51,934 bases of DNA from Desulfobacterales bacterium (GCA_020345745.1 CP070768.1:3347395-3399328); one strand, 5' to 3'. Positions 8,122 to 35,745 are shown, counted from the first letter of the stretch. Numbers and translations: made by a program. Notes: generated from the sequence alone by a model not told the origin.

Positions 8122-8451
8122 TTAAGTGCCTCTTAAGGTCATAATTTGGCAATCTCTGTTGAAACGAATCGCCATGCCTTCTGGTGTCGAACGCACCATG
8201 TCTCCTTCAAATTCTATAAAACACCTCGCATCCATCGTCAGCTCACAAACACAGTTACCCGGGATGGTGAGACTTAGAAGAAACCGTGTGTCTTCTGGAA
8301 CAAGGGGCGGCTCCTTGGTATAGATGAATGCGCTTTCGGCAGATAGGTCTTTGGTTTCAACATCAAATAGCTTTTTTCCATCTGACATTATGGCTTCCAT
8401 CGTTGCGGGTAGGGAAGCTGGATACCTTTTAAATTGACGTCGTTCGTTCAT
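8122..8451 (-). CDS. Single-domain PilZ protein
   Basis: ERRQFKR (RxxxR), DLSAES (DxSxxG variant), VRSTPEGMAIRF. Confidence 0.85.
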   Translation of the reverse strand: MNERRQFKRYPASLPATMEAIMSDGKKLFDVETKDLSAESAFIYTKEPPLVPEDTRFLLSLTIPGNCVCELTMDARCFIEFEGDMVRSTPEGMAIRFNRDCQIMTLRGT

Positions 8452-8588: not shown

Positions 8589-8780
8589 AAATGGAGATTA
8601 ATAAGTTAATTAGTGCTGCTAAAAAGTTAGATTCTTACACCTCAAATTCAAATATTAGTGAGCATATGAAAAGTGACATGGTTTTGACCGAGCCCGTCAT
8701 GATTACTTTCCATAGATTAAATATAAAGCAGGCATTAAATCCGTATGGTTGTTATTATTCTTAAGTTTATAATATAATTT

Positions 8781-9153
8781 TGTCAAGCAAAATTATATAT
8801 AATTAATATATAATTTTATTGAATTAGGATATATTGCAGTTTATTAGATTAAATTACTACATTTTGTACGCCAAAACAGCAAAAAAGGGTGTAAAAATCG
8901 AACGATTCTATGACTCTGCTTATTTAGGTACCGCTAAAAAGTAAATCCATGAGAATGAATAATTTACGCCAATTCCATGAATTTTGGGTACAGCTCTCTG
9001 GTGAACCCAACCTGGATTTAGTTGGTGTGGACTTTGATTGAAAAACTAGGAAAGCAAAAAAGGGTAAAAACTGTCAAAAGGAGTTACCCTATTGAAAAAA
9101 TATGATCTCAAATATTTTAAATCCTTAATATTTTTGAGATCATAGAAAGCACA
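8781..9153. repeat. ~370-bp non-coding duplication, copy 1
   Basis: Colinear with 9689-10073; first ~75 bp nearly identical, including an AT-only palindrome; ends in the junction repeat. Confidence 0.85.
9054..9153 (-). repeat. Junction repeat copy A (hairpin + 52-bp site 9102-9153)
   Basis: AGGGTAA...TTACCCT hairpin; TATGATCTCAAA...TTTGAGATCATA inverted repeat. Confidence 0.75.
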
Positions 9154-9336
9154 GGTCATGGATTTAAGATTTCAGGCTTAAACAGCAAGTATTGTATGAT
9201 AGGCTAAATGCAAGCTATAAAGCTTAGACGGCAAGTTACAGCTTGATGCAGAGGTTCGCAGAATAAAAGTTTTACATCATGGGAACCGAATCCAGCTAGA
9301 GTGCCGATTCTAAAAAAGCGTCATCCAGAACCTAAT

Positions 9337-9594
9337 TTACACAACATAGTGGCCGTTAGTGTGTTGTAGTATATGAGGATATTGTACCTTAGGGTTAACC
9401 TTGTAACAATCAACGCACTTAATGAAATACGTATTAGAGAAACACCCCAATAAAGCGCCGCCATTTATGCCAAATCCTCCAGACGTAGATGTTATATTGA
9501 TGATCACATCGCTCCCACAGTCCGAACATTTACTTTTTATTACTTTTGGCTTTTTAGGGTTTATTTTAAATATTGTTTTTAACATTTCTACCAT
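9337..9594 (-). CDS. Small zinc-ribbon-like protein
   Basis: CSDC...CVDC pairs; GGAGG RBS. Confidence 0.65.
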   Translation of the reverse strand: MVEMLKTIFKINPKKPKVIKSKCSDCGSDVIINITSTSGGFGINGGALLGCFSNTYFIKCVDCYKVNPKVQYPHILQHTNGHYVV

Positions 9595-9688
9595 TAGTAG
9601 TTGCCTCCAACGATGTTTATTTATGCAATGACCTGAAAGAGAAAGGAGTCTATTATATTTATTATATCATGTATTTATTATTGGTTAG

Positions 9689-10073
9689 TGTCAAGCAAAA
9701 TTATATATAATTAATATATAATTTTATTGAATTAGAATATATTGTAGTTTATTAAATTAAATTACAATATATTGTGCGGTTGGAAATCAGGAAACTGAAT
9801 AAAATCGAATTTTCTATTACAATGCCTATTTAAGTACCTCTAAACAGTAAAACTTGATGGTTTAAATAATGACCAACAACTTTCTATGGGTTTTAGGTAC
9901 AACCCTTAGGTACAAAGTTCTGATAAACTCTGATAAGATTTATTGGGGATAGGCTCTAAGAGGAAAGTCAGAAAAGCAATAAGGAAAAACCCCCAAAAAG
10001 GATTTGCCCTTATTGAAAAACGATATCACAAATATTTTAGGCCGCTGATATTTACATTTTCATAGCAGTAATC
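9689..10073. repeat. ~385-bp non-coding duplication, copy 2, including junction repeat copy B (9976-10073)
   Basis: Matches 8781-9153; site GATATCACAAATATTTTAGGCC...CATAGCAGTAATC at 10022-10073. Confidence 0.85.
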
Positions 10074-10236
10074 GCCATAGTTACCGTTTTGTGATATTGT
10101 ATTATGGTATCACAAAAAATAAGGCACTTGATACTTGGAGGTCATTGCAAATACCTAAGGTTTGGGATGATAGAAACTGAATACATCACCGACCGCGTGA
10201 TCGGCAGGCCCCGAACGAGGTAGATGATACAACAAC

Positions 10237-11007
10237 ATGGGATCGACACACTCAACAAGCTGGCGCTACGGAATCCTGGTGCTTTTGATGCTCGGATCAC
10301 TCTTAACTGTGATGAGCCTCGAACCCACCCCCCAAAACCTAGCTTACCACGACTTCGCGGATCAGCGTACATTCCTGGGCGTTCCCAATGCCTTGGATAT
10401 TATCTCGAACCTGCCCTTCCTGTTGGTCGGCATTCTCGGCCTGAGGTACTGCATCCGTGCTGACCTTGGTGCAGGCCGCTTGGCATGGATAGTCCTCTTC
10501 GCTGGCGTCAGCCTGGTCAGTGTAGGATCAGCCTACTACCACTGGGCCCCTAGCAATGGGACACTAGTGTGGGACCGACTTCCCATGACCGTGGGATTCA
10601 TGGGTCTCCTCGCAGCGCTGTTAAGCGAATATGTCAACCACCGGCTACCACGCTGGGCACTGACACCTGCCGTGCTCGTCGGTGTAGCCAGCGTGCTCTA
10701 CTGGCACTGGACCGACGATCTGCGGCCTTACGCATGGGTTCAGTTCTTTCCCCTGCTGACCATTCCCGTCGTAATGGTGCTTTTCCGGCCCCGCTACACC
10801 CACGCCTGGCTGCTGCTCGTCTCGTTAGGGTGGTACGTACTTGCCAAGGTCACGGAGTACTTCAACGTACCAATTTTCGAGCTTACCAAACAAGTGGTTA
10901 GCGGGCATTCCATGAAACACGTCCTAGCAGCTGCCGGCTGTTACAGCATTCTGCTGATGCTCCAAAAGCGGCGGCCCACAAGCGTCGCTGCAGCCAACGC
11001 TGGGTAA
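10237..11007 (+). CDS. Ceramidase-like (CREST superfamily) membrane hydrolase
   Basis: YHDFADQR, SNLPF, GSAYYH, WDRLPM, SGHSMKH metal-binding motifs; visibly GC-richer than its flanks. Confidence 0.88.
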   Translation: MGSTHSTSWRYGILVLLMLGSLLTVMSLEPTPQNLAYHDFADQRTFLGVPNALDIISNLPFLLVGILGLRYCIRADLGAGRLAWIVLFAGVSLVSVGSAYYHWAPSNGTLVWDRLPMTVGFMGLLAALLSEYVNHRLPRWALTPAVLVGVASVLYWHWTDDLRPYAWVQFFPLLTIPVVMVLFRPRYTHAWLLLVSLGWYVLAKVTEYFNVPIFELTKQVVSGHSMKHVLAAAGCYSILLMLQKRRPTSVAAANAG

Positions 11008-11087
11008 CACAATTTGAAGTCCGTGGAAATTGGGGTTCTCAAAACATGCGATCTCTTACCATGATCACATGCTTAACCACCCAAATT

Positions 11088-11150
11088 TTCTGTACATAAA
11101 TCTTTTTTCTTACAAAATTGCAAAAAGGATAAATCTCTCTCAGATTCCCC
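11088..11150 (-). repeat. Partial junction repeat copy C
   Basis: TTTCTTACAAAATTGCAAAAAGG identical to the flank of copy H at ~18826-18848; hairpin decayed. Confidence 0.55.
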
Positions 11151-11301
11151 ATAAATAATCCTCACCAAATTTAAAGTCGGATTTGTTAATATGCTCACAT
11201 TTATAAAATATCCATAGTGTCATTGATTCAATTGACCTATTTTCATTAATGAATTAAGATCGTATAAAAATTTCAATCCAATCTATTCATCAAATAATTA
11301 T

Positions 11302-11742
11302 ATGAAGAAAGCCCTGTCATTATCATTGACATTCCTATTTATTTTCATTTTTCAGATTTCTAATGCAAATGATTCACCCTGCCTTCAATTTTACAATGAA
11401 TTGTCTAAATTGCCTCATACAAGATTGATCTTAAATCCCAATGGATTTGTTTCATTATGGGATGGGAAATCGTTAAACGGATGTGAGGTTATATTTAAAA
11501 GCGATGAATCGATTGTGTCAGGTGGAATCGTTTATCTGAAATTTCAATCTTTCAATAATTGGCAGGGTTGGTCAATTAATGAAAATTTGATAGCAGATGG
11601 ACCTGGATCATCAACAGTTGGCATTGAAAATGATCAAAATAAATGTACTATTCATTGGTCACAACACGCATGGATCGATGAAAAATCAAATGAATATAGA
11701 CAAAGTAAACATATCAAATTGATTATCCAATGCACTTCTTAA
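11302..11742 (+). CDS. Hypothetical secreted protein
   Basis: Signal peptide ending SNA, four Cys, ADGPG motif. Confidence 0.75.
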   Translation: MKKALSLSLTFLFIFIFQISNANDSPCLQFYNELSKLPHTRLILNPNGFVSLWDGKSLNGCEVIFKSDESIVSGGIVYLKFQSFNNWQGWSINENLIADGPGSSTVGIENDQNKCTIHWSQHAWIDEKSNEYRQSKHIKLIIQCTS

Positions 11743-11748
11743 TAAAAT

Positions 11749-11845
11749 CAAAAAGGCAAATCCTCTGAAAAGGACTTGCCCTTTTGAAAAAATAATATCA
11801 CAGAGATTTTAGGCCTCTAATATTTGCACTTTTATAGTAGTTATC
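11749..11845 (-). repeat. Junction repeat copy D
   Basis: AAGGCAAATCCT...AGGACTTGCCCTT hairpin plus 52-bp site 11794-11845. Confidence 0.85.
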
Positions 11846-11960
11846 GGTAGTTTCGCTGAACCTGTGTTTAGTTGGAGGTAACACAGGTTTCAGAATGACA
11901 ATAAACCAAGCGTTATATATAAAGCATCAAATCGATAGCATCAGAGATTAGCGACAGCTA

Positions 11961-11990
11961 TCAGCCGCCCGCTGGAGTGACTTGTTAGGT
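11961..11990 (-). repeat. Integron attC 5'-half remnant
   Basis: Minus strand ACCTAAC-AAGTCACTCCAGCGGGCGGCTGA, 11 nt after the globin stop; fits RYYYAAC plus an L''-like box; no closing GTTRRRY seen. Confidence 0.55.
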
Positions 11991-12001
11991 GGATTCTATT
12001 G

Positions 12002-12388
12002 TCAGACGACAATGTCCTCTCGCGTGCTAGCCACAATCGCTTTAAGCTCTTCCTGCTCCCTCTGAGGCACCCTGAACTTGTCCAGTGTCTGCTGGAAATC
12101 ATCTAAAAAAGCTTCCCACTCAGCAGCAGAAATCAGCAGATGTCGGTGCGAATCAAGCATAGAACGACCGGTATACTTTTGTGGCCCACCTGTTGCCTCG
12201 CAGACCATTTCCGTTACGAGGTATTTGAACCCCGGCGGCGATATCCAATGATGAGCTTTGTCCACTCGCGGGTTTGAATTTAAGCGCGGGTCGACCATGA
12301 TCCGGTTGATGAAGTAATCCACGACGGTCGCGATGCTATATACACCCCCCAGCCGCGCATAAAGACTTGGTTGATTCTGGCTATTCAT
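12002..12388 (-). CDS. glbN: Group I truncated hemoglobin
   Basis: SLYARLGG, TGGPQKYTGRSM..SH; AGGAG RBS. Confidence 0.92.
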   Translation of the reverse strand: MNSQNQPSLYARLGGVYSIATVVDYFINRIMVDPRLNSNPRVDKAHHWISPPGFKYLVTEMVCEATGGPQKYTGRSMLDSHRHLLISAAEWEAFLDDFQQTLDKFRVPQREQEELKAIVASTREDIVV

Positions 12389-12707
12389 GACATGGCTCCT
12401 TGATTTTCTCCATTATTGTTTGTTTAAGATGCCATTGGTAGCGAGACAAACCAATTGTTGATCCCAAGCTATAATTAAGCAATTCATGTATTTTAAGATA
12501 GGTCTGTATTCAGAATACGATACAGGATTTGGCAAAAACCTTACTGATGATCAATGATGGAAAAGGTCAAGAGTAAGTAATATGCAATGTAAATTGAAAA
12601 GGAAAAATACGAAACCTATTGGAAAGAAGGTATATATAAAATCACCAAAGTCAATAAAATTGTATCACATTGTGTTAGAATTAATTAGATGACATATATC
12701 ATCAAAA

Positions 12708-12765
12708 TGAAAAGGGCAAACCCTGTAAAAAAGATTCGCCCTTAATGATAGCGGTATCTCATATG
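12708..12765 (-). repeat. Junction repeat copy E (hairpin plus partial site)
   Basis: AAGGGCAAACC...GATTCGCCCTT then GGTATCTCATAT. Confidence 0.7.
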
Positions 12766-12785
12766 TGTCAAAACCGTGATCCGTA

Positions 12786-15440
12786 TTATTCTTTGTCCAA
12801 AATCCCTCTTATCTTTTGTGACAGATCTATCATACTGAAAGGTTTCTGAATAAAACCATCGCAACCACGTTCCAATATTTCGGTTGCTTGGCCATTGATG
12901 CTGTAGCCGCTGGAAAGAAGCACTTTAATTTGAGGATTGATCTCTTTCAGTTTGTCGTATGTTTCTCCACCGCCTATTTCCGGCATAATCATATCCAAAA
13001 TAACCAGGCCTATTTCTTTTTGAGTCTTTTCGTAAATCTCAATCGCTTCTTTTCCACCTCTAGCGATCAGGACCTTGTATTCCATTTTTTCCAACATAGA
13101 CTTCCCAACATCAATCACCATATTTTCATCATCCACCAAAAGAACGGTCTCTTTACCCGTCAACACCTCTTCTGACAATCTCTGCTCATCCATGACCTCT
13201 TTTTCCAAAGCCGGTAGATAAATGTTGAATGTCGACCCTTCACCTTTCTCACTGAAAACGTTTATCATGCCATTATGGTTTTTGATGATTCCATATGCGG
13301 AAGCAAGACCTAAGCCTGTACCTCTGCCCATTTCTCTTGTGGTAAAGAACGGGTCGAATATCCTCTCCTGTATATCTTTATCCATTCCGATGCCGGTATC
13401 AGTAACCGATATTTTTACATATTTTCCTGGCTCTGTGGAATAGGGATTTACATAGTCCGCATCGAGCACAATATTCTCCGTTTCAACGTATAACTCCCCA
13501 CCACCAGGCATTGACTGCCAGGCATTAACAAAAAGATTTAATAGAACCTGTTCAATCTGACTCCGATCCACTTCAGCCGTCCAGATGTCTTTTTGGCTCT
13601 TTCTATGAATTTTAATCTCTTTCTTCGTGCGACCAAACATTTCAGAGCTTTTATTAAGCAGTTGGTTAAGGTCCGTCGGTTTGACCTCATATTTCCCACC
13701 TCTTGCAAAACCGAGAAGCTGCCTTGTAAGACTAGACGCACTTCCCACATAATCCTCTATACCTTTTAGATGTTCATAAAAGGGATGGTAAGAATCGGCA
13801 TCCATCAGCATCAAAGATATCCGCCCTTGGATACCCATGAGCAAGTTATTAAAGTCATGGGCAATCCCTCCGGCCAAGGTGCCAACGGATTCCATCTTTT
13901 GGGCTTGGAGAAGTTGTTCTTCCATCCTCAGCCTTTCGGTAACGTCTAAAGCTATTGCGACGAAAACGGGCGTTAATTCAAATGTCACAAACTGAAGATG
14001 CACCTCGACATGATATAGAGATCCATCTTTCCGCTTATGAACTGTATTAAAAAGGATAACATTTCTTTCACCTGTTCGAAGTGGTTCAATGAAATTTAAA
14101 AATGAATTTAGAGTGAACTCAGTCTTAATATCTAAAGGAGTCAACCTCTGGAGCTCTTCCATTGAGTATCCCAAGTTATTTCTGGCACCCTTGTTCACCT
14201 GTATGAATTTGAGAGTATCAGCGTTAAAAACATAGATTTCGTTCAAAGATCGCTCAAGTATGTGTCCAAAACGTGTCGCTTTCCCTTCGAAACGCTCACG
14301 TTCAGAGACTTCCTTTGCTAATTGTTGGTTGATTCGAGCTTCTTGAATAATTTTTCTTTCAATTTCTGCAGTATACTTCAATCTTTTAAACAGGTAGAAA
14401 GCCAATGTAGCAGTCAATAACAACGATCCAAATAGGATTATCCACGCATACCAGTGTTGGTGAGAACCGGGATAGGATGAAGTTGGCCTTAACAGAATTT
14501 TCCAATGACGCCCCGCGAATTCAAAGTTATTACTCCAGTGAAGATCTCTCTCAATGACCTTTTCCTCCATTGGTTGAGCAGCCATTTTTGACGTATGTGA
14601 TGGGCGAAAGTAAAGGAACCGTTTTTCTTCTTCACCGGATACATCGTAAAGGAATACCTCAATCCCTTCATCAGTGAAACTATCCAGTGCGGTTTCTACG
14701 ACATCGCCAATGCGGATGACTTCCACCACAACTCCTTTGCGGGATTTGTGACGCTCTTCCAAAGTTTTCAAGCTAACGCCTTGGTGATAAATGGGGTGGA
14801 GGATCAAGACGCCGAACTGGTTGCCGGTTTCCTGAACTAATTTGATCCTGCCAGTGACGACCGATTTTCCTGAATTGAAAGCATGTCTAATGGCTTGCAA
14901 TCGTGTTGGGTTTGAAGCAATGTCATAACCCAGGGCTGGTGCGTTCGTCTCCAGGGGATCTATATAATAAACCACAACATATTCTCGACGCTGTGCAGCC
15001 CTGGTAAGCTCCCCTTTTTCAGTCCTTTCCGTGAACTTGAAATTTTTTACCCCTTCCTTTCTAGCCAGTGACTCATAGACGGCACGCTCATTATCCATTA
15101 CAAGAGGATTCCATGAAAACGCCTGGATACCTGGGTAGCGAGACAGGGTACTCTTTGCAAAACTGGAAAACTCCTGACGGGTCACATGCTCGGAATTATT
15201 AAAAAAGTCTCCAAGGAACTCGAGCGCTTCCACATACTGCTGCAAACTGTTTTGCACCGCATTTGCGTAACCCTTTGAGAATGATTCGAATTCTATATGT
15301 TGATTCGTCCGTTCCCAATTATTGACAACGAAAAATAGAATAAAAGATATCACGATCCCTATGCCAGCTGTACAAATAACGGTAAGATAGCTTCGAAGGG
15401 GAATCGTTTTGTGCTTTGCTAAATTATTCTCGCTGTTCAT
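12786..15440 (-). CDS. Hybrid sensor histidine kinase (TM-CHASE-TM-PAS-HisKA-HATPase-REC)
   Basis: PALGYD (CHASE), [11 protein letters not shown]-box, NA/DTG.GM/FDPFFTT/GTGLGL boxes, receiver LLVDDE...LDMIMP...FIQKPF. Confidence 0.95.
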
Positions 15441-15829
15441 TTTGGTCCTATAGTCTTTTCATAAACTCAACTTGGGTATAAGTCTAATTAATGGATGTCG
15501 ACAGTTTTCAAAGATGATTTTGAACAAAAGTGGCTATACAAAATAATATAATCTGCCCTATCATCGATTTTAATAATGATCTCGGCTAATCACCTAAGGC
15601 TACGATTGCGGCACATACACAAATATCTTACCATGACTTGATATCTGTTAAATTTACAGATATCAAATTCGGACTGTAAATATCAATTCCAGATCGTTTT
15701 TCAGATATCTATTCCTTACATCAGGTATGGTGTTATCTATGATATATTGAGAGTATATCTCAAGATAATCGGACCTGTCAAAACCTTTGATTTCTTGCCA
15801 GTATAGCAGATTGAACCAACTCTAACTAT

Positions 15830-15905
15830 TTTGCATATATCTTATTTCTTGCATAAATGCAAAAAGGGCAAACCCCCGAAAAATGGATCTGCCCTTATGA
15901 TATCC
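15830..15905 (-). repeat. Junction repeat copy F (flank + hairpin + TGATATC)
   Basis: TTTGCATATATC..ATTTCTT.CA.AA.TGCAAAAAGGGCAAA shared with copy H. Confidence 0.75.
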
Positions 15906-16050
15906 GAAAAAAAGATGTGCTTAAAATTATATCGAGTTTTGATCAACAGCTATCCGCAAGCGTTGTCGATTCATTATTTAGGCAGTACAGTTCAATTTTG
16001 GTAGTCAGCAGATAATATATTAGACGAAATATTTACCATAATAGTATCTA

Positions 16051-17064
16051 TTAGTTAAATGATACGATAGCATCCACTCTTTTTATTGGTTTTAACTTAA
16101 AATATCTGTAACGGTCGCCAGAGTGGATTATTATTTCACGGATTTGGATCTCTTGGAGAATATTTAGAGGAACTTCAATGCCCGCATTCCCAAGGGCCCA
16201 AACTTTGCGGTAAAAATCAGCGAGTCCTTTCACCGGTTTTCCTTTTACTGTTAAAACGACATCGCCGTTCTTGATGCCAGCTTTTTCAGCAGGGCCGTCG
16301 GGTGTTGTACGGATGACGATAACGCGTCCATGTACTTCCTCTGCATGTAACCCGAGCCAGGGTTCTGACGGCGCACGAGTACGGCCAAAGGTCTTCAGAT
16401 CATTGAGAATCGGTTTTAGGAGATCTATGGGGACAAACATGTTGCAGGGAATTGACCCCATTCCCTGCACAGTTATCTGTGTAAATAGAGACCCAATACC
16501 CAATAACCTTCCATCTGGTCCAATCAGAGCAGCGCCACCGAAGTTGCTAATCGGCGGAACAGTAAATATTGCATTCTCGATAAGGTATTCCCAGTAGCCT
16601 GCAAATGCCCTTTGTGACACGATTCGAGCTGCCTGAATTGCATCCTTTCCACCGTAGCCGACAACAAGTATCGGGGCACCTTCTTTAAGTTCTGATGAAT
16701 TGCCAAGTTGAATAGGTTTAATTCCAACAGGTTTTTGGGCTCGTATCAGACCGAATCCGGTACTATGATCATAGCCCACAACGGTTGCCGAGGTCGATTT
16801 TTCATTCGGTCCAATCATTTCAACGCTTTCAGCTTCTAAAATGAGATAGCCAATTGTAAGGACGTGCCCATCTGAATCAATAACCACACCATGGCCTTCA
16901 CGCTCTTTTCCGAGTATATTGGCAGTACGGGCATCTTCTGGGATAGTTGCCCTAATCTTAACAATTGCCTTTAATATCTCTTCAAAGCCCTGTTGCGCAA
17001 CTGCAGGTAAGGGCAACGTTAACAATACACAACAAAATATTAATTGGGAAAAAAGGATTCTCAT
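16051..17064 (-). CDS. Secreted trypsin-like (S1C/HtrA-like) PDZ protein
   Basis: Signal peptide, G.GVVID.DG.VLT, GRLLGI, C-terminal PDZ (WLGL...GPAEKAGIK.GDVV). Confidence 0.88.
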   Translation of the reverse strand: MRILFSQLIFCCVLLTLPLPAVAQQGFEEILKAIVKIRATIPEDARTANILGKEREGHGVVIDSDGHVLTIGYLILEAESVEMIGPNEKSTSATVVGYDHSTGFGLIRAQKPVGIKPIQLGNSSELKEGAPILVVGYGGKDAIQAARIVSQRAFAGYWEYLIENAIFTVPPISNFGGAALIGPDGRLLGIGSLFTQITVQGMGSIPCNMFVPIDLLKPILNDLKTFGRTRAPSEPWLGLHAEEVHGRVIVIRTTPDGPAEKAGIKNGDVVLTVKGKPVKGLADFYRKVWALGNAGIEVPLNILQEIQIREIIIHSGDRYRYFKLKPIKRVDAIVSFN

Positions 17065-17094
17065 TTAAACCTACCTATACAAATTCTTCCAGAA

Positions 17095-17190
17095 GAAAAG
17101 GGCAAACTCAGGAAAAAAGATTCTCACCATTGAAAAACGATATCACAAATATTTTAGGCCCTTGATATTTTGGCTTTCATAGCAGGTATC
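17095..17190 (-). repeat. Junction repeat copy G
   Basis: 52-bp site 17139-17190 GATATCACAAATATTTTAGGCCCTTGATATTTTGGCTTTCATAGCAGGTATC with a decayed hairpin. Confidence 0.85.
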
Positions 17191-17231
17191 ACAGGTCTTA
17201 AGCTGAAGATTGCAAACCGAAATTGCAACCA

Positions 17232-18182
17232 TTATTCTTGTCTTCCTGAGGCTTCACGAAGAGCCTTGAGAAATCCTGGATGAATCTGATAACCTAAGCT
17301 CATCGCCTTGTGGATATCCACCCAGGCTTTATCATATTCTCCCTTGGAATAATAGGAAGTTCCCCGATTATTATAGGCCCAAGCATACTTCGGGTTTATT
17401 TCTATTGCCCTACTGTAGTCAGAGATGGCTTTGTCATGCTGTCCTTTGAGTCGATAGGCATACCCTCTATAGTTGTAGGCCAAAGCATAATTTTGATTTA
17501 TCTCTATGACTTTGTTGAAATCAGCGATAGACCTTTCAAGCTGGTTTTTGCCAGCATAGATAAGCCCCCGATGGAGGTAGGCATAAACAAACTTTGGGTT
17601 TATCTCTATGGCTTTGCTGTAATCAGAGATAGCTTGGTCGTACTGGCCCTTACCTTTAGCATATGCAAACCCTCTATTGTAGAGGGCCTTAGCATACTTG
17701 GGGTTTATCTCAATTGCCTTGTTGAAATCTGCGATAGCCTTGTCATACTGACCTTGCTTCCCATGGGCATTCCCCCGATTATAGTATGCTTCAGCATATC
17801 TCGGGTTTATTTCTAATTCTTTACTGAACTCAGAGATAGCCTGTTCAAAATTACCTTTGTTGTCATAGGCTATCCCCCGATTGTAATAGGCATTAGTAAG
17901 TTTCGGATCAATACTAATGGCTTTGCTGAAATCAGCTATGGCCTTATCGTACTGGCCTGTGTTGTTGTAGACAAGCCCCCGATTGAAGTAGGCATCAGCA
18001 AGTCTCGGATCAAGACGGATGGCTTGGGTATACTCTTTTATGGCTCGTTGATAGTTGCCTGTTTTATAATAGGAATTTCCTCGATCGAGGTAAGCCTTTT
18101 TTGTTTTTTCAACAGCAATAGTAGCACAGCCAATAATTGTAATCAGAGCCAAAACAAGAATGTATAAAATATATCTTCGCAT
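17232..18182 (-). CDS. TPR-repeat lipoprotein
   Basis: Lipobox IIGC; about 8 repeats of AYYNRG..Y...GQYDKAIADF.KAIEINP. Confidence 0.92.
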   Translation of the reverse strand: MRRYILYILVLALITIIGCATIAVEKTKKAYLDRGNSYYKTGNYQRAIKEYTQAIRLDPRLADAYFNRGLVYNNTGQYDKAIADFSKAISIDPKLTNAYYNRGIAYDNKGNFEQAISEFSKELEINPRYAEAYYNRGNAHGKQGQYDKAIADFNKAIEINPKYAKALYNRGFAYAKGKGQYDQAISDYSKAIEINPKFVYAYLHRGLIYAGKNQLERSIADFNKVIEINQNYALAYNYRGYAYRLKGQHDKAISDYSRAIEINPKYAWAYNNRGTSYYSKGEYDKAWVDIHKAMSLGYQIHPGFLKALREASGRQE

Positions 18183-18243
18183 TATTTCAACTACCTTAAA
18201 AAACTACGTCTTTAAAATTTGAGCATGAGGTCAGAAGATGAAA

Positions 18244-18298
18244 GATATTTCGCTATGGAATTCGCGATAAGATAAAAAGCGAATTTCCATAGAGAATC
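18244..18298. repeat. Symmetric variant of the junction site
   Basis: GATATTTCGCTATGGAATTCGC...GCGAATTTCCATAGAGAATC; both ends resemble the GATATCTGCTATG arm. Confidence 0.45.
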
Positions 18299-18441
18299 AA
18301 TTATAAAGGTCGGTTCTATTAAAATTACTGTAATTTCAATGCTGAATTTCCAAAGCTCAAATGTTGCGATTTATTGCCAAACACACAATGTAAGGCTAAT
18401 TAATGCTAAATACATAACATATAAAGATCACCTTTTGATAC

Positions 18442-18687
18442 TTATAACCTTGGATCGAAATGGCCGGGGCCTCCACATTCTGGGGTATAACAAGTAACGT
18501 TCCGGAAATCGCACTTTTCATTGCATTGTGAGCATGTGTCTGGAGGTATTGAAGCAGTAATGAGGAACCCGCATTTAGAACATTTCCAGAAAGTTTGGTC
18601 GCATTCAGGACAGATATCTTCTTTAAACTTCCCCTCAGCAGTATAACCACAGTGCGCACAGACATATTTTTCTTGCTTATTTTCCAT
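18442..18687 (-). CDS. Tandem rubredoxin-like metal-binding protein (81 aa)
   Basis: YVCAHCGY...CPEC and WKCSKCGF...CSQC plus CYTPECGG tail; GGAGG/AAGGA upstream of MENKQ. Confidence 0.8.
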   Translation of the reverse strand: MENKQEKYVCAHCGYTAEGKFKEDICPECDQTFWKCSKCGFLITASIPPDTCSQCNEKCDFRNVTCYTPECGGPGHFDPRL

Positions 18688-18809
18688 TTTCCTTAACCTC
18701 CTTTTACAATTCACTTTCAATAAATATAAAATTTACAAAATAGCCTTAATCTCTTATGCTCAACCATGTAATACCTTGCCAAAACCACTGGTTTCAGCCA
18801 GTTCTTTTT

Positions 18810-18937
18810 ATTTGCATATATCCCATTTCTTACAAAATTGCAAAAAGGGCAAAACCCTATCGAAGAGCTTGCCCTTTTGAGAAAAATGATATCTCAAATA
18901 ATTTAGCCTCAAAAATCTGTCATCTATAGCAGGATAC
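18810..18937 (-). repeat. Junction repeat copy H
   Basis: CAAAAAGGGCAA...TTGCCCTTTTG hairpin; GATATCTCAAATA...TATAGCAGGATAC. Confidence 0.85.
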
Positions 18938-18940
18938 TTA

Positions 18941-19010
18941 TTGTCTTGTTGAAATAACAATATCAACAAGACAAAGTGTATGTCAACCTTTTTTGTTGAC
19001 TTCAACAAGA
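18941..19010. promoter_or_regulatory. Putative RHH operator array
   Basis: Perfect 12-bp inverted repeat TTGTCTTGTTGA-N10-TCAACAAGACAA, GTCAAC-N7-GTTGAC and a further TCAACAAGA overlapping TTGACT. Confidence 0.65.
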
Positions 19011-19030
19011 ATTCTTTCTAATTATGGAAC

Positions 19031-19186
19031 ATGGATAAAAAAGTTTTCTTCAACACGACGGTTCCCGAAAACCTCATCAAACAGTTCAAAATATTGGCTA
19101 TAGAGCTTGGTAAACGTCAAAATGAATTGTTGGTTGAAGCCATTGAGGACCTTCTGAAAAAGCATAAAAAGAAGGGTAAGAAATAA
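19031..19186 (+). CDS. Ribbon-helix-helix DNA-binding protein (51 aa)
   Basis: MDKKVFFNTTVPENLIKQFKILAIELGKRQNELLVEAIEDLLKKH: alternating beta strand plus two helices; absent from the ORF track. Confidence 0.8.
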   Translation: MDKKVFFNTTVPENLIKQFKILAIELGKRQNELLVEAIEDLLKKHKKKGKK

Positions 19187-19204
19187 CTCTTAACTGAGAT
19201 TGCT

Positions 19205-19648
19205 ATGAAAAAAGTAGATCTATTCATCATTGTTGCATTAACAACCGTTTTTTTGTTTAATGGTGTTGGTCAGACACAACAGTATGAAACTCAAGCAAAC
19301 CGTTTAGAATCCTTTTTGTTCAATTATTGCCAGATATATGAAAGCAAAGATGCAGAAAAACTAGCCAACTTTTTTTCATCCGATGCTACTGAAAATAACA
19401 AGCCATTCAAAGAACTGCAGCCGAAATATCGTAGCAATATGAAAAAATTCAAATCAGTTAACTACCGGATAGATTTAGAGGCATATTCAATAAATACCGA
19501 TACAGGAAATGTTAGGATTAAGGGAAAATATTTCATCCGAATCCTATTGCCTGGTGAACCATGGAAAGAAAATAGAGGCCCTATTTCAATGGAGCTTATT
19601 GAGAGTGGAGACTCTTATTTAATAAAACGACTTAGTTATGGTGAATAA
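19205..19648 (+). CDS. Secreted NTF2/SnoaL-like protein
   Basis: Signal peptide; Y...YESKD...L..FFS.DA.EN pattern; C-terminal LIKRLSY. Confidence 0.7.
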   Translation: MKKVDLFIIVALTTVFLFNGVGQTQQYETQANRLESFLFNYCQIYESKDAEKLANFFSSDATENNKPFKELQPKYRSNMKKFKSVNYRIDLEAYSINTDTGNVRIKGKYFIRILLPGEPWKENRGPISMELIESGDSYLIKRLSYGE

Positions 19649-19724
19649 ACTTCAGTCAAAGAAGGATGATACAAAAGAAAGCCAAAAAATATCCTTCAAC
19701 CAAGAAATCACAATGAACTGATTA

Positions 19725-19760
19725 CAGACCCCACTTTCCGTCATGGAGGTGGGGTTTTGT
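19725..19760 (+). terminator. Intrinsic terminator
   Basis: ACCCCACTTTCC / GGAGGTGGGGT stem plus T tract; followed by a degenerate junction site at 19767-19819. Confidence 0.65.
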
Positions 19761-20213
19761 GTTTATGATATATGCAATAAGTAAGAATAGGCTTCAGCCT
19801 GTGTTAATGGCAAAATATCTTTATGCATGGTATATCTTTTCCATCCCACCAATTCTATCTCGGTGTAGTATAATTTTTTAGATTTGAGCGATCTTATATT
19901 TATGTTTTTTTGTATTGAAATTTCTATGTAATTTTTTTCATAATGTGAATTAAATGTAAGAAATATATTACATTTTTTTCATATTTTCCTGTTTCGATCC
20001 TATTACATTTTAGATAACTGGCTGAAATCTAAGGAAAGGAAATAAATGCTTGATTTCGCACGATTCTTGCATAGAATAGTGGGTGAGTCTTATGTTATAA
20101 TATCAATATTACAGTCGTATTTCATATTTTTCGGCTAGATTGAAAATGGTTCACGGTTAATTTTTTAACTCCACTCGCTTTCCTAAAGTCACCTCCTATT
20201 AATTTCAATTATT

Positions 20214-20537
20214 ATGAGAAAACTGTTATTAATTTTTATTTTTTTGTTATCGTTTCAGATCGATGTTCACGCCACTATGTATAAATATGATTATTATGGC
20301 TCAATTAGCTTTAATGATCTAAATGTAAATAGTACCACCATAATTATCGACACCCCATTATATGTTCCAGGCATTAGAAATATCAATAATGATGGACATT
20401 GGGAATGGGGATACACAGTTTCAGATTCTAATGCTCATCCGATCCCAGAACCTGCAACAATGTTTCTTTTAGGTTCTGGGCTACTTGCCCTTGGTTGGAT
20501 TGGTCGGAAAAAGATAATTAATGGTAATTGGAAATGA
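20214..20537 (+). CDS. Short PEP-CTERM protein
   Basis: Signal peptide (VHA); PIPEPATMFLLGSGLLALGWIGRKK sorting signal. Confidence 0.9.
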   Translation: MRKLLLIFIFLLSFQIDVHATMYKYDYYGSISFNDLNVNSTTIIIDTPLYVPGIRNINNDGHWEWGYTVSDSNAHPIPEPATMFLLGSGLLALGWIGRKKIINGNWK

Positions 20538-20686
20538 ATGGCATTCAATTAAATGATAATGGTGGTAGACGATTAGGAGTTGATAGGAGACAATATTCTT
20601 ATTATTTTCATATTCCTGAACGCAGGTCTGGTAAAGATCGTAGAAGCGGGCTTGATAGAAGACAAGAAATAAGAACAGCTGAGTAA
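20534..20686 (+). CDS. 50-aa DRR-repeat arginine-rich microprotein, paralog 1
   Basis: MNGIQLNDNGGRRLGVDRRQYSYYFHIPERRSGKDRRSGLDRRQEIRTAE; ATGA overlap with the upstream stop; paralog at 22237 differs at many synonymous positions. Confidence 0.85.
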   Translation: MNGIQLNDNGGRRLGVDRRQYSYYFHIPERRSGKDRRSGLDRRQEIRTAE

Positions 20687-20701
20687 TAGAGATATTCAAT
20701 A

Positions 20702-20797
20702 GAGCAGGATCAGCAATGGTCCTGCTTTTTTATTATCCGACTTGCGATATCTGCTATAAATGACACGAATTTCAACCCTATAATTTTTGCAGATATC
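20702..20797 (+). repeat. Terminator plus junction site J (20746-20797)
   Basis: AGCAGGA..TCCTGCT-T tract, TTATCCGAC, GATATCTGC-N34-GCAGATATC (52 bp). Confidence 0.8.
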
Positions 20798-21222
20798 ACA
20801 ATGCCGGATACAATGTTCTATAATCCACATACTGGCAAGATATATGTAATCACCCCCCTTCTTTTCCCTCAATTCATACCATCAATGAATACCACAATGC
20901 AGCATACAGCCCTTTGAACTATGTCACATATTATGAAAAACATTTCACAAAATTTATGTAGTTTATCCCACAATTACCTAGTTTTTGTCCAAACTTGTTA
21001 GAAATTTAATATGCTTAAAAATATCTACAGATCTTCCAACTAATTGATTTTTATAGATATTTATGCGTCTTTGTTGTAACCGACTGAATTTGCATGATTT
21101 TTGCATAGAATATAAAAATTTGGCAAAGATTCTATATAATTAACCTAAACAATTTGAACAAAGGAATTACCCGGCTAGTCGAACTGGCACGGGCCTAAAG
21201 GCCTTAAACGAGATTTTAGCTT

Positions 21223-21810
21223 ATGGAAACTAAAAAGACCAATGTTAAGATCAGTGAACTTGAGGCTCGTTTAATTCAATTAGTATTTGAAATGTCAGAA
21301 TCAGAAGCAATAGAGCTTTTAGGAAAACTGGAAAAAAGAAAAAAATTAATCCATGGTGAGAAAGAGAAAAGAAAGTATCCAAGAAATAGCACTTTTAGTC
21401 ATGTAGAGTGCTCAGGAAGGCATTGTGCATTCACAGATTTTATTCAAAATATAAGTAGTAGTGGACTTTATTCAGAAGTAATAGAACTCTTAGGAAAACT
21501 GGAAAAAAGAGAAAAATTAATCCATGGTGAGAGAGAGAAAAGGAAATATCCAAGAAATAGCACTTTTATTCATGTAGAGTGCTCAGGAGATTATTGTAGT
21601 TTCACAGATTTTATTCAAAATATAAGTGACGGTGGACTTTTTATTGAGACTCAAATTCCTTTATTCACAGGACTTAAGCTTTCTTTAATTTTCTCCCCTA
21701 ATGATTTTGAGGATCCTATTAAAATATCAGGGACAATAGTCAGAATCGATTCAAAAGGTATTGCTATACAATTCGACAAGCCTATATCAACAATTAATCC
21801 ATTCATATAA
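21223..21810 (+). CDS. PilZ protein with an internal 57-aa tandem duplication
   Basis: Two EKRKYPR and two NISxxG motifs; 171-bp DNA repeat period (21301 / 21472). Confidence 0.88.
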   Translation: METKKTNVKISELEARLIQLVFEMSESEAIELLGKLEKRKKLIHGEKEKRKYPRNSTFSHVECSGRHCAFTDFIQNISSSGLYSEVIELLGKLEKREKLIHGEREKRKYPRNSTFIHVECSGDYCSFTDFIQNISDGGLFIETQIPLFTGLKLSLIFSPNDFEDPIKISGTIVRIDSKGIAIQFDKPISTINPFI

Positions 21811-21840
21811 ATGGCTCAGTTTTTCTATTACTCGACCTTT

Positions 21841-21940
21841 GATCTCTGCTATGAAAGCCTGAATGTCAGGCATCTAATATATTTGTGATATTGTTTTTAT
21901 AAGGGCAAATCCATTTCAAGGAGTTTGCTCTTTTCATTTT
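21841..21940 (+). repeat. Junction repeat copy I, inverted relative to copies A-H
   Basis: GATCTCTGCTATGAAAGCC...TATTTGTGATATT (21841-21892) then AAGGGCAAATCC...GGAGTTTGCTCTTTT. Confidence 0.85.
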
Positions 21941-22034
21941 TATGGTATATGTAACTGGTTTCAATTAAGGTAAAAAACAATTTTAGCCGCACTTTATCAT
22001 CTTCACAATTTATAATCTTTCAGAAAGAATAGAA

Positions 22035-22211
22035 ATGATGACTACGAGCGATTTACATCCTGATAATATTGGATATTATGGGAAACCAGTTTCGTCTTTA
22101 AACAAAGGTGAATTAGTAAAAATTGTCTTGGAATTATCAGAAATAATTTACAATTGCCCTGTCAAAGGCAAATGTAGTGAAATTTTAAAACTTATCGACA
22201 ATCAATCTTGA
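22035..22211 (+). CDS. Hypothetical 58-aa protein
   Basis: MMTTSDLHPDNIGYYGKPVSSLNKGELVKIVLEL...; open frame co-oriented with the downstream microprotein. Confidence 0.5.
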   Translation: MMTTSDLHPDNIGYYGKPVSSLNKGELVKIVLELSEIIYNCPVKGKCSEILKLIDNQS

Positions 22212-22236
22212 ATAAATCGAAAAGGATCTAAAAACT

Positions 22237-22389
22237 ATGACTCCGACTATGTTGCCTGATAATGGAGGCAGACGTTTAGGCGCAGATCGACGTCAATTCT
22301 CATACAACCATCATATCCCTGAGCGTAGATCAGGTAAAGATAGGAGGAGTGGACTTGATAGAAGACTAATACTAAGAATGGCAGAATAG
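22237..22389 (+). CDS. 50-aa DRR-repeat arginine-rich microprotein, paralog 2
   Basis: MTPTMLPDNGGRRLGADRRQFSYNHHIPERRSGKDRRSGLDRRLILRMAE; AAGGA RBS. Confidence 0.85.
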   Translation: MTPTMLPDNGGRRLGADRRQFSYNHHIPERRSGKDRRSGLDRRLILRMAE

Positions 22390-22405
22390 CGAAACTAATT
22401 TATAT

Positions 22406-22500
22406 GAGCAGGGCCGGGAATGGCTCTGATTTTTTATTATCCGACCTTTGATATCTGCTATATATGGAATCCACAAGTGCCATTCCGGGGTTGTGATATC
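22406..22500 (+). repeat. Terminator plus junction site K (22450-22500)
   Basis: Homologous to 20702-20797; GATATCTGCTATA...TTGTGATATC. Confidence 0.8.
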
Positions 22501-22521
22501 AACAATACCTAATAAACGAAA

Positions 22522-22755
22522 CTACCATTTTATTTCGGTAAAATGGTTAAAAGTCCTATCTGCCTTGGCGGGGTCACCGTGCCACCGTTCCTTGCGATGA
22601 ACTAGCGAATTTACAAACGACTTTGCGGTTGCTCTCTTTGGTCGAAAAACGGCGATACTTACCACAAAGAAATTCAACGAAAAATGTTTTGCCGTTCCCG
22701 ATTTCTCCAAAATAGCAAGGGACACTGATTCGACGCGCAAATTCGATATGTGCAA
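22522..22755 (-). CDS. Hypothetical protein
   Basis: AAGGAGG RBS before the TTG; upstream sigma54 promoter; no family recognised. Confidence 0.4.
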   Translation of the reverse strand: MHISNLRVESVSLAILEKSGTAKHFSLNFFVVSIAVFRPKRATAKSFVNSLVHRKERWHGDPAKADRTFNHFTEIKW

Positions 22756-23298: not shown

Positions 23299-23373
23299 TG
23301 GAGGCGGCAACCAGATTCGAACTGGTGAATAGCGGTTTTGCAGACCGCTGCCTTACCACTTGGCTATGCCGCC
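23299..23373 (-). tRNA. tRNA-Cys(GCA)
   Basis: GGCGGCATAGCCAAGTGGTAAGG...CTGCAAA...GTTCGAATC...GCCGCCTCCA. Confidence 0.97.
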
Positions 23374-23383
23374 CAAAAAAAAA

Positions 23384-23458
23384 TGGAGCGGGAAACGGGA
23401 TTTGAACCCGCGACTTCGACCTTGGCAAGGTCGCACTCTACCACTGAGTTATTCCCGC
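23384..23458 (-). tRNA. tRNA-Gly(GCC)
   Basis: GCGGGAATAACTCAGTGGTAGAG...TTGCCAA...GTTCAAATC...TCCCGCTCCA. Confidence 0.97.
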
Positions 23459-34809: not shown

Positions 34810-35745
34810 TTATCGTCGTGGATGGGTCTTATCATAAGTTTCCATTAATTTGTCTATACTTATATGGGTATATTTCTGTGTCGTTGAAAGGCTTTTATGG
34901 CCCAAAAGCTCTTGTACTACCCGCAAATCCGCTCCTGCATCAAGCATGTGCGTAGCAAACGTATGGCGAAGGGCATGCGGTGAAACCGGTATTAACAGGC
35001 CGCATGCCTTCGCTGTCTTTTCAAGAATACGACCAATCGATCGGGTCGTCAGTCGCCCGCCGTTCTTGTTTAAAAAAAGTGGTGTATTTTCCTCCGATGG
35101 TATTCCGGCTTCTATGGCTAATCTATCTCTATAGTTCTTAATGGCAGCCTTTGCCTTTTCCCCGATGGGCACCACCCGTTCTTTGTTTCCTTTTCCTAGA
35201 ACGCGAATGATGCATCGATTAAAATCGACATCAAAGGTATTCATTCCGGATAGCTCAGAAACGCGTATTCCGCTCGAATAAAGGGTTTCAAAAATGGCAC
35301 GGTTCCTTAAATCAAGAAGTGTGTCGTTACCTATCGAATCGAGCAGCCTGAACATATCATCAACGGTCAGATAAGATGGAATGGTCTTCTCCTGTTTGGG
35401 TGAAAGTATCACGTCCAAAGGATTGTCCAAAATAATGCCATGTTTGACAAGGTATCGAAAAAAAGAGCGAATGGCAGAAAGCTTGCGCGCTATGGTCGCT
35501 TTTTTATTCTTTTTATTTAGAAACCCAAGATAGCCTCTGATCATCAGGCTGTCGATCTGATCAGCTCCAAAACGATCCCATCTGCTTTGGTCCTTTTTGC
35601 CGGAAAAAAAAATATCATTAATAAAAGATACCCATTCTTCTAAATCGTGTAAGTAAGCACGGCATGTGTTTGCGGCGTAGCCTTTTTCCGACAACAGTGA
35701 TTCAATAAAGGATGCTATCTGATGTTTTAAGGAAGTTGACATCAT
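34810..35745 (-). CDS. xerC: Tyrosine recombinase XerC
   Basis: G.RVSEL, GKGNKER, HALRHTFATH, LLGH.SLSTTQKYTH; upstream of hslVU. Confidence 0.93.
   Translation of the reverse strand: MMSTSLKHQIASFIESLLSEKGYAANTCRAYLHDLEEWVSFINDIFFSGKKDQSRWDRFGADQIDSLMIRGYLGFLNKKNKKATIARKLSAIRSFFRYLVKHGIILDNPLDVILSPKQEKTIPSYLTVDDMFRLLDSIGNDTLLDLRNRAIFETLYSSGIRVSELSGMNTFDVDFNRCIIRVLGKGNKERVVPIGEKAKAAIKNYRDRLAIEAGIPSEENTPLFLNKNGGRLTTRSIGRILEKTAKACGLLIPVSPHALRHTFATHMLDAGADLRVVQELLGHKSLSTTQKYTHISIDKLMETYDKTHPRR

Follow-up and report, generated by a model that had tools for sequence, protein, structure and literature searches.

What is the sequence that recurs between unrelated genes along one half of a bacterial DNA stretch, and what might it do there? 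The question is raised by 51,934 nucleotides from a Desulfobacterales bacterium (GCA_020345745.1, CP070768.1:3347395-3399328; the whole stretch is called the window), in which a short site bounded by GATATC, accompanied by a hairpin, is found at one gene junction after another. A first-pass annotation had taken the site for the target of an integron-like system of gene capture and shuffling. Our analysis leads to a different answer: the element is probably a family-specific mosaic repeat of intergenic regions, similar in kind to bacterial interspersed mosaic elements (BIMEs) and BOX elements, which has an intrinsic terminator as its core and punctuates independently transcribed accessory genes. 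Such a repeat is apparently undescribed so far, and our literature search, judged from titles and abstract openings, returned no description of the element.

The repeated site is no product of chance. With up to two mismatches allowed, the 13-mer GATATCACAAATA matches 11 times in the window, compared with 2.61 ± 1.5 times in shuffled sequence, and none of 100 shuffles reached 11. A repeat search of the window recovered two families, one of 103 nt and a hairpin family of 43 nt, at the positions that the first-pass annotation had given. The assembly that contains the window (G000; 91.8% complete) is one contig of 3.42 Mb; in it, an iterated nhmmer profile found 75 hits, 52 of them with the site part. 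Forty-eight of these 52 copies also carry the hairpin, on the same side, and 50 have no overlap with our ORF (open reading frame) calls, i.e. are intergenic. Of 125 copies defined by a regular expression, 99 span 47 or 48 nt from GATATC to ATAGCAG; fixed length and fixed hairpin side had both been proposed earlier, and both hold. A covariance model of site plus hairpin (R1), built from 101 copies, gives 58 matches in G000, which places the copy number of this genome at about 52-58. Run on the window with filters off and E<0.001, R1 returns eight matches, the first seven on the minus strand and the last (21837-21938) on the plus strand.

The 52 site-bearing loci are spread across the whole chromosome; from one copy to the next, the distance is below 10 kb in only 19 of 51 gaps. 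Superimposed on this scatter is a clear tendency to cluster: 13 neighbour gaps fall below 3 kb, when 2.0 would be expected from random placement in intergenic gaps. The window is the densest cluster of the genome, with six copies in 15 kb and three in the next best region, values reached in none of 1000 simulations; the array seen in the first pass is therefore a real one. Genes flanking the elements in G000 are shorter (median 525 vs 738 nt) and lower in GC than average. Element positions differ between G000 and the well-assembled genome G006, and most element-adjacent genes of G006 have no homologue in G000.

Orientation of the element follows transcription. In 36 of 52 copies in G000 and 84 of 102 in other genomes, the site-side gene is directed at the element, and in 38 of 52 and 83 of 106, respectively, the hairpin-side gene is directed away from it (binomial p values from 0.008 to 2e-11); where the strand of the neighbouring genes changes, the element flips with it. 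The biologically meaningful strand is thus the reverse of the one on which the site was first described. Read in this direction, the order is stop codon, optional further modules, a site module that we call B', GTTTTTCAAT, the hairpin, TTTT(C)ATTTT, often a second module, A', and the next gene; B' itself consists of CTGCTAT, about 33 variable nt, and TGTGATATC. For 101 copies on the sense strand, the hairpin is the only structure that RNAalifold predicts. Across its 10 base pairs, 208 cells of the alignment are G·U or U·G and 24 are A·C or C·A (p 9e-38). Given that G·U pairs of the sense strand are mismatches on the opposite strand, this asymmetry points to selection on the transcript, rather than on a DNA cruciform or a folded DNA strand. 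The stem is rich in G+C and is followed by T's that are conserved at 90% or more, it lies co-oriented downstream of a gene, and a consensus scan scores the window hairpins as terminator-like on the sense strand. All features of an intrinsic terminator are present, and the hairpin is accordingly predicted to be a Rho-independent terminator selected at the RNA level, which agrees with the insulating role that the first-pass annotation had given it. In one copy (17092-17194), located 32 nt before the start codon of a trypsin-PDZ gene at 17064, the stem is broken, as expected where read-through is needed; at the matching place of the comparison genome G002, just a remnant of one hairpin arm is left.

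The terminator is one part of a modular whole. B' centres fall into four classes and recombinant forms of these, while the alignment of 101 copies has CTGC-AT as the invariant part of one end and TGTGATATCG-TTTTT as that of the other. The inverted ends described in the first pass are no inverted repeat in any useful sense, because GATATC is merely its own palindrome. By hand count, A' and two sister modules in the window also measure 47 nt between their GATAT boxes, and GATATC spacings in the genome peak at 45-47 and at 126-130 nt. Module A is adjacent to 17 of the 52 copies, and a handful of modules recur after A', one of them with TTGACA-N18-TAAT(C/A)T. The longer motif GATATCACA occurs 79 times, 55 of them intergenic (shuffled 9-mers: 8-66 times, 0-15 intergenic), and serves as a joint in several other intergenic repeat families as well. 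Hairpin half and site half share the same best partner copy in only 2 of 44 cases, and a partner with at least 90% identity over the full length exists for 4 of 44 copies. The nearest neighbour of a copy has an identity of 0.81 whether it is sought within the genome or in other genomes, with 18 of 44 copies nearer to a copy of their own genome and 19 nearer to a foreign one. By these identities, the copies in the genome are old. A single long hairpin made by the whole composite of module A, hairpin and module B (A-H-B) was considered and not adopted; folding of two such composites gave z-scores of -2.85 and -1.33.

Further observations concern the joints and the promoter-like modules. GATATC as such is found 2087 times in G000, against about 967 expected from base composition, and 527 of these sites are intergenic; it is over-represented in genes, too. 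An origin by EcoRV-type restriction and ligation was dropped by eye, GATATC being 2.2-fold over-represented and not avoided, and sigma-54 and CRP/FNR-like sites were considered by eye alone and likewise dropped. Among the loci L001-L112 of several genomes, a module ACAGGTTTTGACAAGTCC ... TAATCT lies downstream of A' and has a perfect -35 hexamer and an 18-nt spacer. A consensus promoter scan of the region revealed a mild enrichment (72 sites vs 49 ± 9.6).

We propose the following model. On the gene strand, a 47-nt B' module, whose conserved ends are CTGCTAT and TGTGATATC, is followed by a short U/A-rich stretch and by a hairpin of 10-12 bp with its U-tract. Another module of 47 nt, A', is often added, as are stock modules of other kinds, promoter-like ones among them, and GATATC-like hexamers form the joints throughout. 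Termination and insulation would be the selected function, and B' would be carried in the 3' untranslated region (3' UTR) of the upstream gene. Copies may have spread slowly, by duplication and by recombination between modules, without a dedicated recombinase. In the window, the modules would punctuate a series of short, mostly single-gene and poorly conserved units, each ended by a stock terminator and insulated from the next. In the other half, operons are packed so tightly that no room is left for such modules. The parts of the system found in the window, with H denoting the family hairpin, are the following:

9054..9157, minus strand: degenerate B' plus hairpin H, with GATCTC replacing GATATC at the ends (R1 64.1 bits, E 5.5e-10).
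9974..10077, minus strand: B' with a class 1 centre plus hairpin H (R1 97.7 bits).
11086..11141, no strand assigned: what is left of a long linker, accompanied by a decayed hairpin (family D8 of direct repeats, also present at 15825 and 18806).
11746..11849, minus strand: B' plus hairpin H between the convergent genes 11302-11742 (plus) and 12002-12388 (minus) (R1 97.2 bits; terminator-like site 11787-11748, minus strand).
12706..12808, minus strand: intact hairpin H (12712-12743) with a decayed B' (R1 47.9 bits; terminator-like site 12743-12712, minus strand).
15789..15958, minus strand: weak module A (15789-15841), long linker, hairpin H and a shorter GATATC-bounded module (nhmmer E 0.0018 for A; R1 33.4 bits for 15858-15958; family D8).
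17092..17194, minus strand: B' (class 1) plus the mutated hairpin upstream of the trypsin-PDZ gene (R1 80.9 bits; stem broken in the alignment).
18771..18941, minus strand: module A (18771-18822), long linker, hairpin H and B (class 3), the most complete composite of the window and the one with the fold z-score of -2.85 (nhmmer E 2.2e-9 for A; R1 67.4 bits for 18839-18941).
19767..19819, plus strand: a lone module A', with the unrelated terminator 19726-19757 immediately before it (nhmmer E 9.9e-13 for A; terminator-like site).
20742..20850, plus strand: two GATATC-joined modules of a sister family, 47 nt each by hand count, after the terminator 20701-20728 and without hairpin H (R1 just E 0.31; seven copies of this context in the genome).
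21837..21938, plus strand: B' plus hairpin H downstream of a PilZ gene, in sense with the plus-strand genes (R1 88.1 bits).
22450..22503, plus strand: B'-like module of another small family (CTGCTAT ... TGTGATATC) after the terminator 22409-22428 and without hairpin H (from the context list, with a terminator-like site; no R1 match).
23299..23458, minus strand: tRNA-Cys and tRNA-Gly, given as context (ARAGORN, Rfam), which form the border between the repeat-rich and the operon-packed half.

This inventory revises the earlier list of sites in part. Of the eight copies that had been listed as full, those at 9102, 10022, 11794, 17139, 18888 and 21841 stand, and those at 20746-20797 and 22450-22500 turn out to be related site-like modules of sister families, which lack the family hairpin and each follow a different terminator. 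Two copies listed as partial (12710 and 15860) are hairpin-bearing members of the family by R1; that at about 11100 comprises only linker and decayed hairpin, that at 19767-19819 is the other module of the same system, module A, and R1 gives no match for 18244-18298. A site with hairpin had been reported at nearly every gene junction: 8 of the 13 junctions between 8.4 and 22.6 kb have an R1 match, 4 of the other 5 have a related stock module, and the remaining one (18182/18396) holds just the unmatched sequence 18244-18298. Several claims were borne out. R1 is silent beyond 22 kb, with no match in the other 30 kb; Pfam confirms the mixture of unrelated functions (ceramidase, globin, CHASE-PAS hybrid kinase, trypsin-PDZ, TPR, RHH, PEP-CTERM, PilZ); and the composition scan shows the reported differences in GC content, with 0.53 at 10-11 kb and 0.33 on both sides.

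How far does the element extend beyond this genome? An exact-pattern scan with one genome per species yielded at least 112 loci, and among the matches listed nearly all are in metagenome-assembled genomes (MAGs) titled Desulfobacterales, Desulfobacteraceae or similar. Within the family to which the window belongs, R1 has matches in 39 of the 41 genomes sampled and in 10 of 11 genera, with tens of copies in each of the better assemblies (58 in G000, 52 in G006, 73 in G017); G004 and G005, of the same family, gave no match. Two genera of the family, g5 and g6, stand out with 0-3 matches, compared with 10-70 in others. Among 118 sampled genomes of other families of the order, four have matches, one to five each, and three of these four are fragmented MAGs. 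A single-contig genome from a different family of the order carries one isolated copy (G102:C1:1039157-1039261, E 3.7e-10), which could be a transfer or a relic. None of the 30 relatives searched belongs to the same genus. Plasmid and phage collections searched with one copy of the element gave no match. A metagenome scan with the trypsin-PDZ protein found at most 67% identity and no element in the 518 kb of those 80 loci. Membership of a known Rfam family, which the first pass had named as an outcome that would refute its reading, is not supported: in Rfam 15 nothing overlaps the elements at E<=1, and just the two tRNAs of the window reach the gathering score. One of the alternatives listed there, a repeated regulatory module, comes close to the reading presented here.

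In its manner of working, the element is of the BIME/BOX type and is no member of the integrons, of the repetitive extragenic palindromic (REP) sequences with their associated tyrosine transposases (RAYTs), or of the classical MITEs (transposable elements of the miniature inverted-repeat type). It is intergenic and multi-copy and is built from discrete modules variably combined around a palindrome; this is a likeness of kind, with no homology claimed. BIMEs of enterobacteria are built of REP units, lie between genes, often at gene 3' ends, and affect termination and mRNA ends. They share with the present element a small number of discrete modules in varying combinations around a palindrome, the intergenic location, the multiple copies and the frequent position at gene 3' ends. 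In contrast, the present element has no sequence relation to them and no GTAG/CGTC tag; its palindrome is a full terminator with a U-tract, its modules have a fixed length of 47 nt and GATATC joints, and it is present in tens rather than hundreds of copies. The BOX elements of Streptococcus pneumoniae consist of boxA, boxB and boxC modules and are comparable in their units of about 45-60 nt, their variable number and order, their position between genes and their possible influence on neighbours. They belong to another phylum and differ in sequence, whereas here the terminator centre is selected as RNA and the copies are old and occur in many genera. The attC sites of integrons, including clusters of attC sites lacking integron integrases (CALIN), resemble the element in their conserved ends, variable centre, constrained length, position 3' of gene units, common orientation and clustered array. 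However, no integron integrase scores above the cut-off here, the RYYYAAC and GTTRRRY boxes are missing from the consensus of 101 copies, as the first-pass annotation had already stated, most copies lie scattered, the units bring terminators of their own, and selection acts on the RNA strand and not on folded DNA. Finally, Nijveen et al. (2012; PMC3575422) describe putative mobile promoters and promoter reuse. Both systems place highly similar intergenic regulatory sequences beside unrelated genes, within and across related genomes, but the reused core is here a terminator with spacer modules, and promoter-like modules are occasional partners.

A number of observations weigh against a mosaic repeat centred on a terminator. 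CTGCTAT and TGTGATATCGTTTTT are often more conserved than stem positions, and a plain terminator needs neither of these sequences nor a fixed length of 47 nt. B' displays no conserved RNA fold (per-class z-scores from -0.26 to -1.05; RNAalifold pairs the hairpin only) and no evident promoter, given that a -35 element is missing upstream of CTGCTAT and the -10-like hexamer ends in A, not T, in 82% of copies. Some B'-like modules are preceded by another terminator (20701-20728 and 22409-22428), and in these places they cannot be plain 3' UTR. In addition, genes were called by a crude longest-ORF heuristic, the comparison genomes are fragmented MAGs for the most part, and in pairs of contigs with 92-99.8% identity homology stops exactly at GATATC joints or at the borders of modules and never resumes. 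Conservation just 5' of the hairpin beyond the needs of the stem would also suit a small RNA (sRNA) or a shared 3'-UTR module, in which a variable 'seed' and then a constant U/A-rich stretch precede a terminator, and through which about 50 mRNAs per genome would be under a common RNA-binding factor or RNase, or which would give rise to 3'-UTR-derived sRNAs. The sense-strand layout of variable region, UGUGAUAUCGUUUUUCAAUA, hairpin and U-tract resembles the 3' modules of Hfq-type sRNAs, the polarity agrees with transcription, and the centres fall into discrete classes. Yet the -10-like TAT(A/G)(A/T)A lacks the final T and has no -35 partner, B' has neither conserved structure nor covariation, and the empty Rfam result counts against this reading as well, which makes it distinctly unlikely. 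It is unlikely that the element is a transposable one of the non-autonomous sort (MITE- or REP-like), moved in trans by a transposase, whose terminator activity would be incidental. Dispersed, intergenic, multi-copy elements with positions that are not conserved between G000 and G006 would fit, as would the 99%-identical counterpart of the copy at 9974..10077, which lies 1.5 Mb away (G000:1842260-1842490) and ends exactly after ATAGCAG; an assembly gap adjoins one member of this single pair. The outer ends of the A-H-B composite also share GATATCT(T)GC (about 9-10 nt) in inverted orientation, as seen by eye. Set against this, the 5' end of B' and the flank after the hairpin give no inverted-repeat signal (score 6.0, vs 5.65 for shuffles), with 7 of 150 copies at 9 or more, and no target-site duplication is visible in the flanks of 36 composites. 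The consensus of the copies has no REP/RAYT tag (GTAG or CGTC), no association with a RAYT was found in G000, and the hairpins at the ends of an IS200-like element and of a RAYT-like gene are different ones. Many near-identical copies are usual in active MITE families, in contrast to the few full-length partners seen here, and the strong orientation bias and the G·U asymmetry point to selection at the level of the host. As a candidate parent, three Y1_Tnp matches were considered and rejected, none being linked to the element; other insertion sequence families were not searched. One gene of this kind (G000:1452411-1453436; 341 aa, Y1-transposase-like and RAYT-like) is flanked by its own, different inverted repeat, GGGACGGTCATGA, unrelated to the element.

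The remaining alternatives invoke site-specific recombination. If the GATATC-ended sites were recombination targets, gene units or 47-nt regulatory modules could be captured and shuffled by a recombinase encoded elsewhere. The densest array of the genome, where sites of fixed length, with conserved ends and variable centres, separate mutually unrelated units of one or two genes, invites this reading; so do the homology breaks at joints, the use of GATATCACA by several other repeat families, the two adjoining tRNA genes, and a rubredoxin-like gene unit (18370-18782) that is 89% conserved in G002 and flanked there by a different module. Still, it is highly improbable. An integron-like system fails because the copies are scattered over the whole chromosome, a pattern that the first-pass annotation itself had named as speaking against its proposal. 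Integrons have one co-oriented array of mostly promoterless cassettes, but here we find 52 dispersed loci oriented by gene strand, units with terminators of their own and promoter-like modules, old copies and a hairpin selected as RNA rather than as folded DNA. The best hit to the integron integrase (TIGR02249) in G000 scores 85 bits against a cut-off of 265, the level seen in integron-lacking controls, although this absence is not absolute because the assembly is 91.8% complete. The sole tyrosine recombinase ORF of the window (34810-35745) is 12 kb away in the operon-rich half, and the empty palindromic target TGTGATATCACA is found nowhere in the genome. Two adjacent tyrosine-recombinase genes are present elsewhere (G000:932505-934155), at 1.5-2 kb from elements at 935619 and 936307. 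It is also quite improbable that the GATATC(ACA) joints are crossover or insertion points of an undescribed, family-specific system that assembles intergenic regions from 47-nt modules, terminators and promoter modules. Such a system would explain the constant module length, the shared palindromic joints, the homology breaks at joints and the concentration in flexible regions; if real, it would move or re-wire accessory gene units and would be a 'regulatory cassette' system instead of a passive repeat family. For the breaks themselves there is a simpler account, because recombination between mosaic copies, or chimeric joins in MAGs, would stop identity where the parental composites differ.

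Several neighbouring genes and sequences deserve mention in their own right. The copy at 9974..10077 belongs to a block of about 415 bp (9654-10068) that recurs elsewhere in the genome. Its AT-rich part (9654-9850) lies upstream of an 85-aa ORF (9337-9594), and part of it recurs at 8766-8870 upstream of a PilZ ORF (8122-8451), as well as at G000:996647-997016 and G000:1842260-1842490. It contains a promoter-like site (TTGACA-17-CATGAT) on the minus strand, has matches of 81-91% identity in many genomes of the family, several in each, and looks like a reused promoter or operator module. Two 50-aa ORFs with (D/E)RR repeats (20534-20686 and 22237-22389; 73% DNA identity, no Pfam match) are each preceded by a small ORF and followed by a similar terminator and a site-like module, and the region 22023-22464 is 92% identical to G000:3329579-3330020. 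The PilZ-domain gene 21223-21810 has an internal tandem duplication of 169-171 nt (21301-21640, 89% identity). The ceramidase-family ORF (10237-11007) has a GC content of about 0.53 between flanks of about 0.33, which suggests a recent foreign origin. A 77-aa ORF beside the tRNA genes (22522-22755) has no Pfam match and, by eye, a P-loop-like motif; it may be what remains of an ATPase gene from an integrated element. Directly upstream of a 147-aa ORF (19205-19648) without a Pfam match lies an antitoxin-like ORF of 51 aa, of the ribbon-helix-helix kind (19031-19186; Antitox_RHH, E 2.6e-6), and the two may constitute a toxin-antitoxin pair.

If the element is indeed a mosaic repeat built around a terminator, an entire family of bacteria relies on a small set of stock parts for much of the punctuation between its accessory genes. 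The element would then be a family-specific marker and would supply terminator annotations, ready for use, at tens of sites in each genome. It would also serve as a warning that short-read MAG assemblies of this group break or mis-join at these repeats. Beyond this, a 47-nt module with invariant ends and interchangeable centres, without an evident fold or promoter, has been kept for as long as the family exists. Whether a protein, an RNase or a recombinase is its reader, finding it could bring to light a new level of control at 3' ends or in intergenic regions of sulfate-reducer-like bacteria.

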